Positions 12,804-32,362 of a stretch of DNA of 64,000 bases are shown one piece after another. The notes under the pieces were generated by a model that was not told the origin of the DNA, made no database searches, and saw only the letters and a list, made by a program, of their open reading frames with translations. Made by a program: the position numbers and the translations under genes. The DNA comes from Amphiscolops sp. MND2022. Its lineage: Eukaryota. Position 1 is the stretch's first letter, and each line of letters opens with the position of its first letter. The stretch covers positions 68,574,001-68,638,000 of the forward strand of contig OZ076409.1 in the NCBI GenBank assembly GCA_964187785.1. The letters are read 5' to 3'.

Positions 12804-13792
12804 CTAAAACACGCAATTCCTGGACTAGACATTTTTCAAACCTGGCGACCGGCGACCTCCAAGTCAAACTTTTAGTCAATTGATACAAAAAATTCTGTTG
12901 ATAGTTTAAATTGAAGGTAATAGGTTGCTTTCATTGTTGCTTTACTATTTTCCGCCCGTTCCCATGAATGAAAAAAAAACGAAACTCTCAGCCTTCATTT
13001 TTTCAGAAAGATCGCCATACTCCAATACTCAACAAAATTCAACAAAAACCTTTATATTCGTAGAATATGTAGTCATGGAGGGAGATATCAATTTTTTGCT
13101 AATATTTTCTACTCTCTAGTATTTTCCTGCATATTTTCCTGCAAGTTCTAATTGAATTCCAACTCTTCTGTAGTTTTCCGTCAAAAAGCAACGAAAATTT
13201 GTAAAAAAATTTCCTTCGAATTTTGAATGTTGTTATGTTTAACACAACTTTTTCTTCATTTTAATATTTGAAAAAACATATTTAGAAAATTATTCAATCG
13301 GAGCTAGAATTTTTTTTTATTCAATTTTTGTGAACTCTTACTCAAATTCTTTCAATTCTCCAGGCACGCTCGAAAGAATTTTAGAGATAAACAAAATTAC
13401 AGCTGCGCGTCATATGAAAGGGAGAATTCCCCTCTACAAAAGAAAACGCTTGCCACTTGTGCAAACAATTATCTTTTATCTCCCCTGAAAAGACAATATG
13501 CGACGCCACTTGTGCCAGTAAATATCTCTGAAAAGAGAATAATAGGCGCCACTTGTACGGCCAAATTCTCAATTTTAAACAAAAGATATCTCAAGTGGGA
13601 ACAAAGTCCCCCACTTGAGAGGATTAATTCCCCTGACAAATACAAAGAGTTGCGTCAGCCAACTCGGTTAGCCGAACATATTCGGTAGCTGATGCAATCC
13701 CCGCCGACTTCTATTCGGTTGCATCCAATAGTGAATGCGATTCCAATTATGGACAAAATATTGACGAGATAATGACGAAATAATTTCGTATC

Positions 13793-13880
13793 CAATAAAA
13801 AACGCCAATCGATTTGATTGGTTGTACCTTTCGGTCGGCTCGTATAAAAAGCCGGACTCTAGCAAATTGATTCATAATTT
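13793..13880 (+). promoter_or_regulatory. LTR Pol II promoter (CCAAT boxes plus TATA)
   Basis: CCAAT at about 13793 and 13805, ATTGG at 13817, TATAAAAA at 13843-13850, then an Inr-like TCAT about 25-30 nt downstream. Repeated GCCACTTGT motifs lie upstream (13450-13560). Confidence 0.6.
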
Positions 13881-14011
13881 TCTCGCATAAATCTCTCGCA
13901 CACTCTCACTCTGACTCTCCTCTTCGCCTCTGCTATAAATCATCTCTCTCAAAAAAATCTCTCTCTTGCGAGAACAAATCTCTCCGACCCAATCTTTGCT
14001 TCAAACTTCAG

Positions 14012-14109
14012 GTTAGTTATTTTCTTTAACTTAGAAAATAACTTCAAAATTCACAACTCAAAATTTTTCTCTTTTTTCTTTGCTCCTTTTTCCTACCTGT
14101 CTTTTATAG
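14012..14109 (+). other. Putative 98-nt intron / major splice donor within the LTR
   Basis: CAG|GTTAGT at 14012, a long polypyrimidine tract, and ttttatAG at 14109. Confidence 0.55.
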
Positions 14110-15285
14110 ACAACCCCCAGTCCTAGTGACTGAAGAGACAAACAACCGACAAGGTTCTCCTATGAAAATCATAGGGAAAACTAACTAGAGCTAAACGCTC
14201 CCAAACAATTCTCGACGGAGATCACTTTCCTCTTAGTACGCGATTGCGTCAAGACTTAGCGACTGCTAGTCTAGATCATTTCAATAACTGCAACTAACTT
14301 GCAAGTAAAACAAACTGATTAAAAAGTAAAATGCATGTAACCTTATAAAGTATTGAACAGAATTCTGACAATCTTGTCTAAAAAGCAACCTAGCAAACTG
14401 CTGGTTGAAATAAGGCCTTTAACTCACTTAGACTCACAAGACTTCTTCAAAGTCTTTAGACAAACTTGTCTTCCTCTCGACCTAGCAAACTTGCTGGTCC
14501 ATTGCAATAGGTTAAAACTCTTAGAACACGGCACCGAACCTCTGGATCGAGCCCAATCGGCAATCTTGTCCGAACAAAAACCTAGCGAATGCTGGTTAGA
14601 TAAGACCCTTAATTTACTTAGATTCGCAAGACTTCTTATAAGTCTATGCTCAAGACAATCCTGTCTTCGACCTAGTAATTGGCTGGTCATATAGGCTAAA
14701 ACTATTTTATTTAACTCTCAGCTTCCTATAAGCTAGAACGTGTGACAAACCTGTCACGTAAATTGTCAATAGACTTAGTAACTCTCACTACATTGTTGAG
14801 AACTCTAGGAACCCCAAACCGGTCTGAATAGACTGTAATTCTGGCCAAAAGTCAGCACACTTGTCCTAACCAAATTGTTGGACAATAAGATCAGAAAATT
14901 CCAGTTTTTATAGTATTTAAACAACTTACCTGAACATTGCTCCCTAAATAATTGATGTATTTATTTGTGGTGAATGCTAAACAATTCAGATATTATTGAT
15001 TGGATATTTGTGTCAACTTGGATGATTACATTATTCTGTTTGTATTGTATTCTTGCGTATTGTGAAAAACGAACATTGTTGAATATAATACTCGAACTAA
15101 TTCAAATTCTTTTCATATATTCAAACTCTTCTCTCGAAACAAAGTCCTTCCTGCGAACTCGGAAGACCTAGAGACAACTTTTGTAAAGGTTTAGGAAGGC
15201 ATAGTCGCAAACTAACTCCTAAACACTATTGATCAAGAATCTCAGAAGGCTAATTTCTCCTAAACCCAATCGAACCTTTACAAAC

Positions 15286-29475: not shown

Positions 29476-29497
29476 AGTCTTTTCCATTGAATTTCAG

Positions 29498-30264
29498 AAC
29501 GACCTATCAAGATAAACACAAGCTCATCTACCCTTATTGAACAATTGGAAGATGAAAGGTCCCTTACGGACTCCCTAATCAATGAGTTACTATTGCTTCG
29601 ACAAAAACTCAATATCACCCAATATAAAGATGACACATTTGATTCTGATATGATACACGAGATCAGTAAAAAGCTCGACGCACTTGAGATGCGAGTCCTT
29701 CGTATCGAAAAGAAATCAATTCCACGGGATTGGAACCTCTACAAAGTTATTTGGAGGCTTGATCAATTTTCTGATATTTTTCAGAATGCTGAAAAATACG
29801 AAAAAAGTTTGTCTCATGTAAGAGCACCCTATTGTGATCCTAATAGCCTAAAAGACGTCTGTAGCCCAATCTTCTTCTCACAACCCTTTGGGTACACCTT
29901 TCATCTACGAGCTTACCCTTATGGCATCGACACTGCCAAAGGGAAATACATGTCAGTATGCTTGGCTATGTGTCCGGGACCCTACGATGAGATACTCACT
30001 TGGCCCTTCCAAGGCGTTATCGAGATACACCTCCTTGGTCAAGGCAATATTTACAAACCCTACAAACAGCTCATTGTGACGAATAACAATAACAGTGAGT
30101 GCTTCAAGAAACCTATTCCCACAGCCAGCAACACAGCAATCACCATCTTGTGCTTCATCCCACATGATGAACTCATGAACCCAGAGAACCCCTGGCTAAA
30201 AAACAATTCCATATTTTTCGAAGTAAAAGTCATAAATACCCTGTATGCCCCCCTTTCAACTTAA
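29498..30264 (+). CDS. TRAF-like protein: coiled coil plus C-terminal MATH/TRAF-C domain (probably entered by splicing)
   Basis: VIWRLDQFS, SPIFFSQPFGYTFHLRAYPYG, GKYMSV, GPYDEILTWPF, FKKP, WLKNNSIFFEVKV are hallmark TRAF-C motifs. No ATG at the 5' end; acceptor atttcAG at 29497. Confidence 0.9.
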
Positions 30265-30287
30265 TCATTCTTAAACCCCGGGTGAGT

Positions 30288-32362
30288 TGTTATGTTTAAC
30301 ACAACTTTTTCTTCATTTTAATATTTGAAAAAACATATTTAGAAAATTATTCAATCGGAGCTAGAATTTTTTTTTATTCAATTTTTGTGAACTCTTACTC
30401 AAATTCTTTCAATTCTCCAGGCACGCTCGAAAGAATTTTAGAGATAAACAAAATTACAGCTGCGCGTCATATGAAAGGGAGAATTCCCCTCTACAAAAGA
30501 AAACGCTTGCCACTTGTGCAAACAATTATCTTTTATCTCCCCTGAAAAGACAATATGCGACGCCACTTGTGCCAGTAAATATCTCTGAAAAGAGAATAAT
30601 AGGCGCCACTTGTACGGCCAAATTCTCAATTTTAAACAAAAGATATCTCAAGTGGGAACAAAGTCCCCCACTTGAGAGGATTAATTCCCCTGACAAATAC
30701 AAAGAGTTGCGTCAGCCAACTCGGTTAGCCGAACATATTCGGTAGCTGATGCAATCCCCGCCGACTTCTATTCGGTTGCATCCAATAGTGAATGCGATTC
30801 CAATTATGGACAAAATATTGACGAGATAATGACGAAATAATTTCGTATCCAATAAAAAACGCCAATCGATTTGATTGGTTGTACCTTTCGGTCGGCTCGT
30901 ATAAAAAGCCGGACTCTAGCAAACTGATTCATAATTTTCTCGCATAAATCTCTCGCACACTCTCACTCTGACTCTCCTCTTCGCCTCTGCTATAAATCAT
31001 CTCTCTCAAAAAAATCTCTCTCTTGCGAGAACAAATCTCTCCGACCCAATCTTTGCTTCAAACTTCAGGTTAGTTATTTTCTTTAACTTAGAAAATAACT
31101 TCAAAATTCACAACTCAAAATTTTTCTCTTTTTTCTTTGCTCCTTTTTCCTACCTGTCTTTTATAGACAACCCCCAGTCCTAGTGACTGAAGAGACAAAC
31201 AACCGACAAGGTTCTCCTATGAAAATCATAGGGAAAACTAACTAGAGCTAAACGCTCCCAAACAATTCTCGACGGAGATCACTTTCCTCTTAGTACGCGA
31301 TTGCGTCAAGACTTAGCGACTGCTAGTCTAGATCATTTCAATAACTGCAACTAACTTGCAAGTAAAACAAACTGATTAAAAAGTAAAATGCATGTAACCT
31401 TATAAAGTATTGAACAGAATTCTGACAATCTTGTCTAAAAAGCAACCTAGCAAACTGCTGGTTGAAATAAGGCCTTTAACTCACTTAGACTCACAAGACT
31501 TCTTCAAAGTCTTTAGACAAACTTGTCTTCCTCTCGACCTAGCAAACTTGCTGGTCCATTGCAATAGGTTAAAACTCTTAGAACACGGCACCGAACCTCT
31601 GGATCGAGCCCAATCGGCAATCTTGTCCGAACAAAAACCTAGCGAATGCTGGTTAGATAAGACCCTTAATTTACTTAGATTCGCAAGACTTCTTATAAGT
31701 CTATGCTCAAGACAATCCTGTCTTCGACCTAGTAATTGGCTGGTCATATAGGCTAAAACTATTTTATTTAACTCTCAGCTTCCTATAAGCTAGTTCTTCG
31801 CTTCCTATAAGCTAGAACGTGTGACAAACCTGTCACGTAAATTGTCAATAGACTTAGTAACTCTCACTACATTGTTGAGAACTCTAGGAACCCCAAACCG
31901 GTCTGAATAGACTGTAATTCTGGCCAAAAGTCAGCACACTTGTCCTAACCAAATTGTTGGACAATAAGATCAGAAAATTCCAGTTTTTATAGTATTTAAA
32001 CAACTTACCTGAACATTGCTCCCTAAATAATTGATGTATTTATTTGTGGTGAATGCTAAACAATTCAGATATTATTGATTGGATATTTGTGTCAACTTGG
32101 ATGATTACATTATTCTGTTTGTATTGTATTCTTGCGTATTGTGTAAAAACGAACATTGTTGAATATAATACTCGAACTAATTCAAATTCTTTTCATATAT
32201 TCAAACTCTTCTCTCGAAACAAAGTCCTTCCTGCGAACTCGGAAGACCTAGAGACAACTTTTGTAAAGGTTTAGGAAGGCATAGTCGCAAACTAACTCCT
32301 AAACACTATTGATCAAGAATCTCAGAAGGCTAATTTCTCCTAAACCCAATCGAACCTTTACA
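30288..32362 (+). repeat. 3' LTR (2075 bp)
   Basis: Differs from the 5' LTR by a 22-bp tandem-duplication insertion (about 31794-31815), a 1-bp indel (about 32144) and at least one substitution (about 30924). Confidence 0.97.

Follow-up and report, generated by a model that had tools for sequence, protein, structure and literature searches.

The 64,000-nt stretch of DNA analysed here, from contig OZ076409.1 of Amphiscolops sp. MND2022 (positions 68,574,001 to 68,638,000 of the forward strand; hereafter the window), contains a Ty3/Gypsy long terminal repeat (LTR) element that spans 13231-32362 and is about 19 kb long. We judged it probable, at roughly 0.78, that this element belongs to a Gypsy family of endogenous retrovirus-like elements with the genome of a complex retrovirus, in which the core genes, an env and spread through the host genome are combined with accessory genes under selection and with expression by multiple splicing. 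The element itself is recently active, multi-copy and of Gypsy rather than retroviral type. Besides gag, pol and env it carries six accessory genes, namely the open reading frames (ORFs) A, B, C and D, a gene for a TRAF-C (MATH) protein and a predicted two-exon antisense gene, and a TARG1/OARD1-type macrodomain is encoded within pol. ORFs A to D and the TRAF gene were confirmed to lie inside the LTRs, where the original prediction had placed them. The substitution pattern indicates that the six accessory proteins and the Pol macrodomain are kept intact by selection. The features of the element are listed in Table 1.

The ratio of non-synonymous to synonymous substitutions (dN/dS) was calculated between the window element and eight diverged copies by the Nei-Gojobori method over gap-free codons, the loci being aligned singly and stops being counted apart. 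The results showed that the six accessory frames gave values of 0.03-0.26 overall, against 0.32-1.30 for six control frames, most of which had stops or frame-breaking gaps and among which was the predicted antisense intron. The reverse transcriptase (RT) gave 0.01-0.07; gag, RT and the macrodomain were compared over 6 loci each. A sliding scan of all six frames detected codon-periodic substitution in the same frames, and one further low-ratio window over the twin hairpins. All of nine young copies had full-length B, C and antisense exon 1, and 8 of them also had full-length A; the frame of antisense exon 2 was open over its 84 codons in 33 of 34 young copies. Retention of the accessory ORFs with dN/dS below 1, which had been proposed as a check on the original prediction, was thus borne out.

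Table 1. Features of the Gypsy element and its flanks in window coordinates; dN/dS ranges are against diverged copies and z values are against shuffled sequences
Feature	Position	Strand	Remarks
5' target-site duplication	13227..13230	+	4 bp, ATGT; second copy at 32363-32366
5' LTR	13231..15282	+	2052 bp
Primer-binding-site-like motif (TGG...)	15286..15302	+	
gag	15325..16719	+	464 aa; Pfam match; dN/dS 0.05-0.12
Protease and next part of pol	16689..17560	+	frame break at about 17540-17570 in the window copy
TARG1/OARD1-type macrodomain within pol	17627..18040	+	dN/dS 0.06-0.11
RT, RNase H, bridge, integrase with SH3/p58-type C-terminus	18413..22294	+	
Twin conserved hairpins, non-coding	22535..22735	+	94-97% identity to diverged copies; z -4.9 (crude shuffle)
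Antisense exon 2	22919..23173	-	84 codons; dN/dS 0.03-0.08 in 4 of 6, 2 saturated
Antisense predicted phase-0 intron	23174..23392	-	GT/AG ends; dN/dS 0.80-0.98
Antisense exon 1	23393..23575	-	61 codons; dN/dS 0.03-0.24 in 6 of 7, 1 saturated
Non-coding spacer with repeated short motifs	23600..24450	.	candidate internal (bidirectional) promoter
ORF A	24491..24901	+	136 aa; dN/dS 0.06-0.16 in 3 of 6 copies, 3 saturated
Array of 10 units (51/61 nt)	25006..25566	+	near-invariant 34-nt hairpin core
ORF B	25586..25804	+	72 aa; dN/dS 0.11-0.26 in 6 of 6
ORF C	25804..26268	+	154 aa; dN/dS 0.10-0.14 in 6 of 6
2 x 76-nt structured repeat	26581..26733	+	z -4.1
env	26847..28955	+	702 aa; dN/dS 0.02-0.14 in 8 of 8 diverged copies
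ORF D	28966..29475	+	169 aa; dN/dS 0.09-0.17 in 8 of 8
TRAF-C (MATH), intronless	29498..30264	+	dN/dS 0.04-0.20 (8 of 8); part upstream of ATG 0.09-0.35
3' LTR	30288..32362	+	2075 bp

The boundaries of the element agree with the 2-kb LTRs and target-site duplication originally described: both LTRs have TG..CA termini and ATGT stands at either side. The two LTRs differ by one substitution in 2052 bp, one 22-nt indel and one 1-nt indel. When the animal host genome (1.07 Gb) was screened with the region from D to TRAF, 36 of the 40 scored matches were at least 98% identical and the other 4 were at 79-84% (96 candidates); at least 36 near-identical copies are present, and the recent activity read earlier from the LTR pair is upheld by both results. 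In a further large family, RT identity is 87-89% in the core. Because the synonymous divergence (dS) from the same diverged copies swings with the region from 0.05, at the 3' end of the LTR, up to saturation, the genomes appear to be mosaic, which suggests recombination between subfamilies or co-packaged genomes. Rearranged copies were seen, with tandem duplicates of D plus partial TRAF (L023:2478-6779) or an internal inversion (L019-L020). No primer tRNA was found for the primer-binding site, the sole pattern match being the primer-binding site of another element. Between the end of pol and the 3' LTR lie 8.0 kb, which account for the 8 kb of extra content in the original prediction, but env makes up 2.1 kb of it and the non-env extra is only about 5.9 kb. 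An ORF of 73 aa with a transmembrane segment in the 3' LTR (32053-32274; frameshifted at 14974-15171 in the 5' LTR) was not supported as a gene, its dN/dS being 0.23-1.60, and the other LTR ORFs and the sense ORFs at 23131-23556 and 23596-23964 were rejected on stops, gaps and high dN/dS.

The -1 slippery heptamer TTTAAAC, at about 16706-16712 in the overlap of gag and protease, is kept in 6 of 6 diverged copies. According to Pfam, the pol domains follow the order protease, RT, RNase H, integrase, the last two being of Gypsy type. Gag, a -1 frameshift and pol had been predicted and the three parts stand; left unmentioned was a disruption of pol near 17550 in the window copy. Since 22 of the 44 rows with at least 96% RT identity are stop-free over 1861-1876 codons and P0227 is continuous, we concluded from the reading frames that the break is a lesion of the window copy and not a programme; with half of the close rows continuous, a programmed frameshift at this site was rejected. 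Among solved structures the RT is closest to that of Ty3 (E 1e-34), followed by foamy virus (1e-23), 8r0s (5e-20) and gammaretroviral p80 (4e-15), which is a similarity ranking and not a rooted tree. The RT matches numbered 72, of which 45 were at least 44% identical and bore no informative names, the remaining 27 reaching at most 31%. In a quick RT tree of 69 rows, built without named Gypsy references and with 6 of 74 rows omitted for short cover, the relatives formed a 43-row clade on a long stem (SH-aLRT, the Shimodaira-Hasegawa-like approximate likelihood ratio test, 100). The element has neither the retroviral RT nor the class I env of the Retroviridae.

The predicted 702-aa env was substantiated by a match to PF24664, the Monjiviricetes fusion glycoprotein of chuvirus/gB type (134 bits against a cut-off of 27), a hydrophobic N-terminus, a transmembrane segment near residues 600-626, 16 Cys and 4 sequons. 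No sequence match was found in PDB. The protein is classed here as putatively class III-type, on the Pfam family and on the statement about chuvirus-like env by Chary and Hayashi (eLife 2026, PMC13524379).

A and C are paralogs (tblastn E 1e-11 to 1e-16) and their family has 60 clusters. The structural model of C, with a mean predicted local distance difference test (pLDDT) score of 84.5, has a four-stranded sheet and three helices; Foldseek returned no match at E 0.001 or below in PDB or BFVD, and in VIA-align the best Z was 4.7, with 0 of 48,161 chains at Z of at least 5, by which a new fold is not shown. All 6 of 6 diverged copies keep the overlap between the stop codon of B and the start of C. 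A relationship of B to the A/C family was rejected, since hhalign gave a probability of 0.15% and 169 and 446 of 500 shuffles reached the score. D is acidic at the N-terminus and basic in the middle, where residues 61-120 have a net charge of +14, and its C-terminal domain is conserved; it is a candidate transactivator or RNA-export factor; an ETS/HSF-like reading of it, made by eye, found no computed support and was dropped. No match to A, B, C, D or the antisense exons was found in Pfam, NCBIfam or PDB, and an atlas search with D and C gave no usable match. A putative GTAAGT donor lies about 70 nt upstream of the start of A (24420-24475).

In the antisense gene, the GT of the predicted intron is kept in 7 of 7 copies and the AG in 3 of 3 alignable ones. 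What had been called a spliced antisense gene is thus a two-exon ORF under selection with GT/AG ends, the splicing being predicted from sequence only. A winged-helix reading of exon 2 was made by eye and, having no computed support, was set aside.

The TRAF protein scores 78 bits against the TRAF/MATH family of Pfam (cut-off 27.4). It consists of the MATH domain and a short leader, has a short probable coiled coil and no RING or zinc fingers, and contains no Cys in its first 85 residues; a weak search returned no longer homolog. Its best match is TRAF1 (E 1.2e-12), to which the receptor-groove segment near the C-terminus aligns poorly. Selection on the frame is already evident 5' of its first ATG (29650), and an AG that 9 of 9 copies keep precedes this part, so that translation probably begins in an exon joined on by splicing. 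A putative phase-1 donor near the start of D (29030), in coding sequence, would suit this acceptor. All 150 scored genomic candidates, the best 150 of 440, passed the cut-off, and TRAF lies at most 3.5 kb downstream of env at 44 of 68 env loci (counted against 55 of the 150 TRAF rows). One match among 21 candidates was a host zinc-finger TRAF-like gene with introns, in a stretch that excludes its MATH exon.

The macrodomain matched human TARG1 (PDB 4j5q) with E 2.3e-11 over 124 residues, and Pfam Macro gave E 0.0027 on the same stretch, under its cut-off. In TARG1/OARD1 the Lys and Asp are catalytic and the glycine-rich loops bind ADP-ribose. The binding-loop motif GCGLD is kept in 9 of 14 macro-bearing Pols and the lysine in all 14. 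A model built without an alignment had a pLDDT of 37.7 and was unusable. The macrodomain of the original prediction is therefore present, as a TARG1-type domain, but inside pol and not as a separate accessory gene.

Several signals are consistent with expression by multiple splicing. The 5' LTR has a TATA near 13843, a probable transcription start near 13872, and a 5' splice donor at 14011/14012, the GT of which is present in 8 of 8 diverged copies. Of the acceptors, the one ahead of B is conserved in 5 of 6 copies, that ahead of env in 6 of 7 and that ahead of D, inside env codons, in 7 of 8; the TRAF acceptor is given above. An AATAAA lies downstream of A in 5 of 6 copies and of C in 6 of 6, the stop codon of pol is part of an ATTAAA (6 of 6), and the AATAAA in U3 is lost in 3 of 7 copies. 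The 34-nt hairpin core of the array, a candidate RNA export or packaging element, has 805 exact matches in the genome against 0 for a control; family 2 has three nearly unchanged occurrences of it, one of them with an insertion in the loop that pairs with itself. A search of Rfam gave a single match, with E 0.38 and far under the gathering score.

Taken together, an arrangement with a multiply spliced, polyadenylated LTR transcript and an internal promoter driving A and the antisense gene is likely. One transcript with a short non-coding leader would start in the LTR; its donor at 14012 would join to the acceptors before B-C, env, D and TRAF, B and C being coupled through their stop-start overlap, and the poly(A) signals after pol, A and C would serve as further ends. 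A and the antisense gene would probably be expressed from an internal promoter in 23600-24450, and the full-length RNA would yield Gag and, via the -1 frameshift, Gag-Pol. Many splice sites in that RNA would have to stay unused on its way out of the nucleus, which would call for regulated export of the unspliced form, and we tentatively propose, at well under even odds, that the multi-copy hairpin is a Rev-response or packaging element with D or the antisense protein as its Rev/CERV- or Tas-like partner.

Related families share parts of this organization. Family 2, represented by L027, is 65% identical in the C-terminal part of pol and 59% in env, and has the gene order of the window element: B (41%), three A/C paralogs, env, D (42%) and TRAF (31%). 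Its antisense ORF ends in a GTAAGT donor and has a same-phase acceptor opening on the same codon as in the window element. In L031, an antisense ORF of 184 aa resembles exon 2 (z 4.0, 0 of 500 shuffles as high) and is followed by B (z 6.2, 0 of 500). L029, on another record, is 74% identical in RT and 41% in env; besides gag-pol-env it encodes two D-like ORFs (z 5.3 and 0 of 500 shuffles each), which end in coiled coils and have a 92-aa ORF between them (L029:9741-12095). Other env families of the host genome carry different ORFs behind env: a D-like ORF of 519 aa with a coiled coil follows env in L033:541-2100, and L021:1530-3728 and L034:1299-4332 have another ORF in common after env (442/495 aa).

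A number of points weigh against a complex, spliced and selected genome. The diverged copies are mutually related, which makes their dN/dS values non-independent; several of these approach saturation, and two control frames give ratios as low as 0.32-0.37. The D acceptor and one possible donor lie in coding sequence, where conservation is weak evidence. No stable structure was found 3' of the slippery site (z +0.3 in a shuffle comparison), and the window copy's own pol is broken. Of the structured repeats originally predicted, the 76-nt pair stood up, but one unit of the 51/61-nt array gave z -1.4 and the whole array z -0.3, not more stable than shuffles. The macrodomain of the window family keeps the Lys and GLD, and its preceding loop and first glycine-rich loop are changed. 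The antisense exons of L027 compare poorly with those of the window (73 and 183 of 500 shuffles as high; blastp E 0.026). L029 has no macrodomain, A/B/C or TRAF, and TRAF was not found in the stretches read of L021, L033 and L034. As L029, L033, L021 and L034 carry differing sets, the gene content indicates that the cargo is modular, that the wider clade can do without TRAF, A/B/C and the macrodomain, and that D, which has homologs in L027, L029 and L033, is the most widespread accessory. Finally, we infer the accessory functions, the splicing, the expression, the particles and the immune roles from the sequence.

As to what the cargo does, there is a little less than an even chance that the RING-less TRAF-C is a captured adaptor which acts as a decoy on TNF-receptor/TLR (tumour necrosis factor receptor/Toll-like receptor), apoptosis or ubiquitin signalling in producing cells; such a decoy would let env-bearing particles pass from soma to germline. 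The TARG1-type macrodomain might counter ADP-ribosylation in the sister families and may be non-catalytic or repurposed in the window family. A serious competitor, itself somewhat short of even odds, is that the accessories serve the element's own cycle only, in transcription, RNA export, packaging, env trafficking or cell survival, with TRAF-C as a generic trimeric scaffold. The activator- or RNA-binder-like charge layout of D and its wide distribution fit this, as do the degenerate macrodomain loop, the poorly aligned receptor groove and the element-intrinsic precedent of Cer1 CERV (PMC10309623). It has to be set against a TRAF-C that is a host signalling fold, held at low dN/dS in two families only 31% alike there, the conservation of the GCGLD loop and lysine across macro-bearing Pols, and an iridovirus TRAF that acts on TRADD and apoptosis (PMC3352826). 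The most far-reaching version, which we consider speculative and on the whole doubtful, is a hitherto undescribed deep Gypsy clade that independently evolved a full complex-retrovirus kit: a Rev/Tas-like factor with an RNA response element, a spliced antisense regulator, an expanding small-protein family without a matched fold, host-derived TRAF and ADP-ribosylation antagonists, enveloped spread with a class III fusogen, and hundreds of TRAF-C copies outnumbering the host TRAF genes.

That the extra ORFs are neutral cargo, or frames open by chance and carried along by a young element, is hardly credible. Young copies are too alike to show selection alone and the cargo set varies between families, but dN/dS is far under 1 with dS from 0.4 to saturation, codon-periodic substitutions are restricted to accessory and core frames, and orthologs exist in the family with 59% identical env. 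A further alternative to a vertically kept retrotransposon using env within one animal is a virus that is still passed on horizontally, of which the family would be the endogenous trace. The low dN/dS of env, the many diverged env families in one genome, the patchy dS pointing to recombination between co-packaged genomes and the relatives in other assemblies would suit a virus; the high copy numbers of two families fit intragenomic spread and the viral collection held no confirmed relative (the scans detect close relatives only), so that we regard the virus as unlikely. Membership of a described lineage with the same cargo, be it Burro/GYPSM1, Tor, a clade of the 2026 errantivirus survey or a RepBase entry, is more improbable still. 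Burro has MATH_TRAF_C, a dUTPase-like segment between protease and RT and a mononegavirus-like env (PMC6431247), and env of HSV/gB (herpes simplex virus glycoprotein B) type is widespread in Gypsy. Burro's single polyprotein, its gene order and its BIR, ankyrin, BCL2 and CCHC cargo were, however, not found in the window element, for which Pfam gave no match to BIR, ankyrin, BCL2-like or CCHC knuckles in 15 ORFs, and the RT matches at 44% identity or more bear no informative name while the named ones reach at most 31%. The survey kept regions of at most 10 kb with a pol-env gap of at most 1 kb, extended to 3-5 kb for some groups, against a gap of 4.55 kb here, and its element table does not contain the primer-binding-site motif of the window (PMC13524379); its length filters probably missed elements of this type.

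Other features surround the element. A class A G protein-coupled receptor-like ORF lies about 300 bp from the 5' LTR (12157-12930, minus strand). At 54916-63237 (minus strand) there is an unrelated Gypsy with a 2563-aa gag-pol and a 680-aa tail after integrase, followed one stop later by a 209-codon in-frame ORF, possibly reached by readthrough, that looks macrodomain-like by eye and has no match in PDB or Pfam. A third Gypsy at 44333-50168 has identical 183-nt LTRs and a pol split over three frames. The region 34379-42492 holds a pair of repeats of about 1.1 kb, 7 kb apart and 81-96% alike, with an inverted relative at 53242-54548, and is probably an older decayed LTR element related to the Gypsy at 54916-63237.

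In the literature searched, which did not extend to RepBase, subscription papers and some supplements, no description was found of a TARG1 domain in a Gypsy Pol, of a selected, spliced antisense gene in Gypsy, or of the gene set of the window element. The statement in the original prediction that typical Gypsy elements carry only gag-pol(-env) is too strong, as Burro/GYPSM1 has TRAF-C and env and Cer1 a Rev-like export protein. Families with and without TRAF, A/B/C and the macrodomain offer a natural series for the gain of accessory genes; cargo of TRAF-C and a TARG1-type macrodomain hints at host pathways that restrain retroelements in this animal; and surveys limited to 10 kb are likely to overlook a class of enveloped elements.

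The closest known systems each share some traits. The HSV/gB-type 'ancient errantiviruses' of Chary and Hayashi, which are env-carrying Gypsy elements grouped in clades A1-A11 of an RT tree and described with a 'mini' bridge domain after RNase H, have in common with the window element a Ty3/Gypsy Pol, the GAG-POL-ENV order, recent multi-copy spread and an env with an N-terminal hydrophobic segment and a C-terminal transmembrane segment; unlike them, the window element has four genes between pol and env and two after env, and the words 'accessory', 'macro' and 'TRAF' do not occur in the main text of that paper (PMC13524379). Planarian Burro is likewise a giant Gypsy with MATH_TRAF_C, an env with mononegavirus matches and tandem repeats, and Dugesia tigrina has MATH_TRAF_C as a separate accessory ORF; Burro differs in exceeding 30 kb, in encoding one polyprotein (about 4,900-5,100 aa) in which env sits in frame after gag and before pol, and in BIR/ankyrin/BCL2/SUMO cargo and CCHC knuckles (PMC6431247). 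By description, the window element is set apart from it by separate small genes, a frameshifted gag-pol, env after pol, the TARG1 macrodomain and the antisense gene. Cer1 of C. elegans, also Gypsy-type, makes from a spliced mRNA the regulator CERV, which is needed for export of unspliced RNA (PMC10309623); it has one regulator where the window element has six accessory genes, and the likeness, by description, offers a model for D or the antisense protein. Oikopleura Tor is an env-bearing Gypsy that uses splicing or an internal promoter for subgenomic RNA and for which three genes are described (PMC4402516). Bdelloid rotifer LTR elements captured extra ORFs downstream of pol, but one ORF3 type per family (GDSL, DEDDy or env) and not a six-gene array (PMC5408684), and an orchid Gypsy with an N6-methyladenosine (m6A) demethylase is a partial precedent (PMC9289625).

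Complex vertebrate retroviruses are defined by their accessory-gene arrays, by antisense genes and by control of the Rev type, and it is mostly from complex retroviruses, HIV, HTLV and foamy viruses among them, that this layout has been known; a Gypsy clade with six selected accessories suggests a convergent origin on a different RT and fusogen. Human T-cell leukaemia virus type 1 (HTLV-1) has the antisense gene HBZ as well as Tax and Rex, foamy viruses have an internal promoter, and walleye dermal sarcoma virus has the paralogous orfA and orfB. The window element resembles these viruses in its major donor with several acceptors, antisense gene, duplicated accessories and regulatory cis elements, and differs from them in its Ty3-like RT, in an env of a Monjiviricetes family instead of class I, and in accessories without homology to theirs. 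The likeness to HTLV, foamy viruses and walleye dermal sarcoma virus is one of analogy and not of membership.

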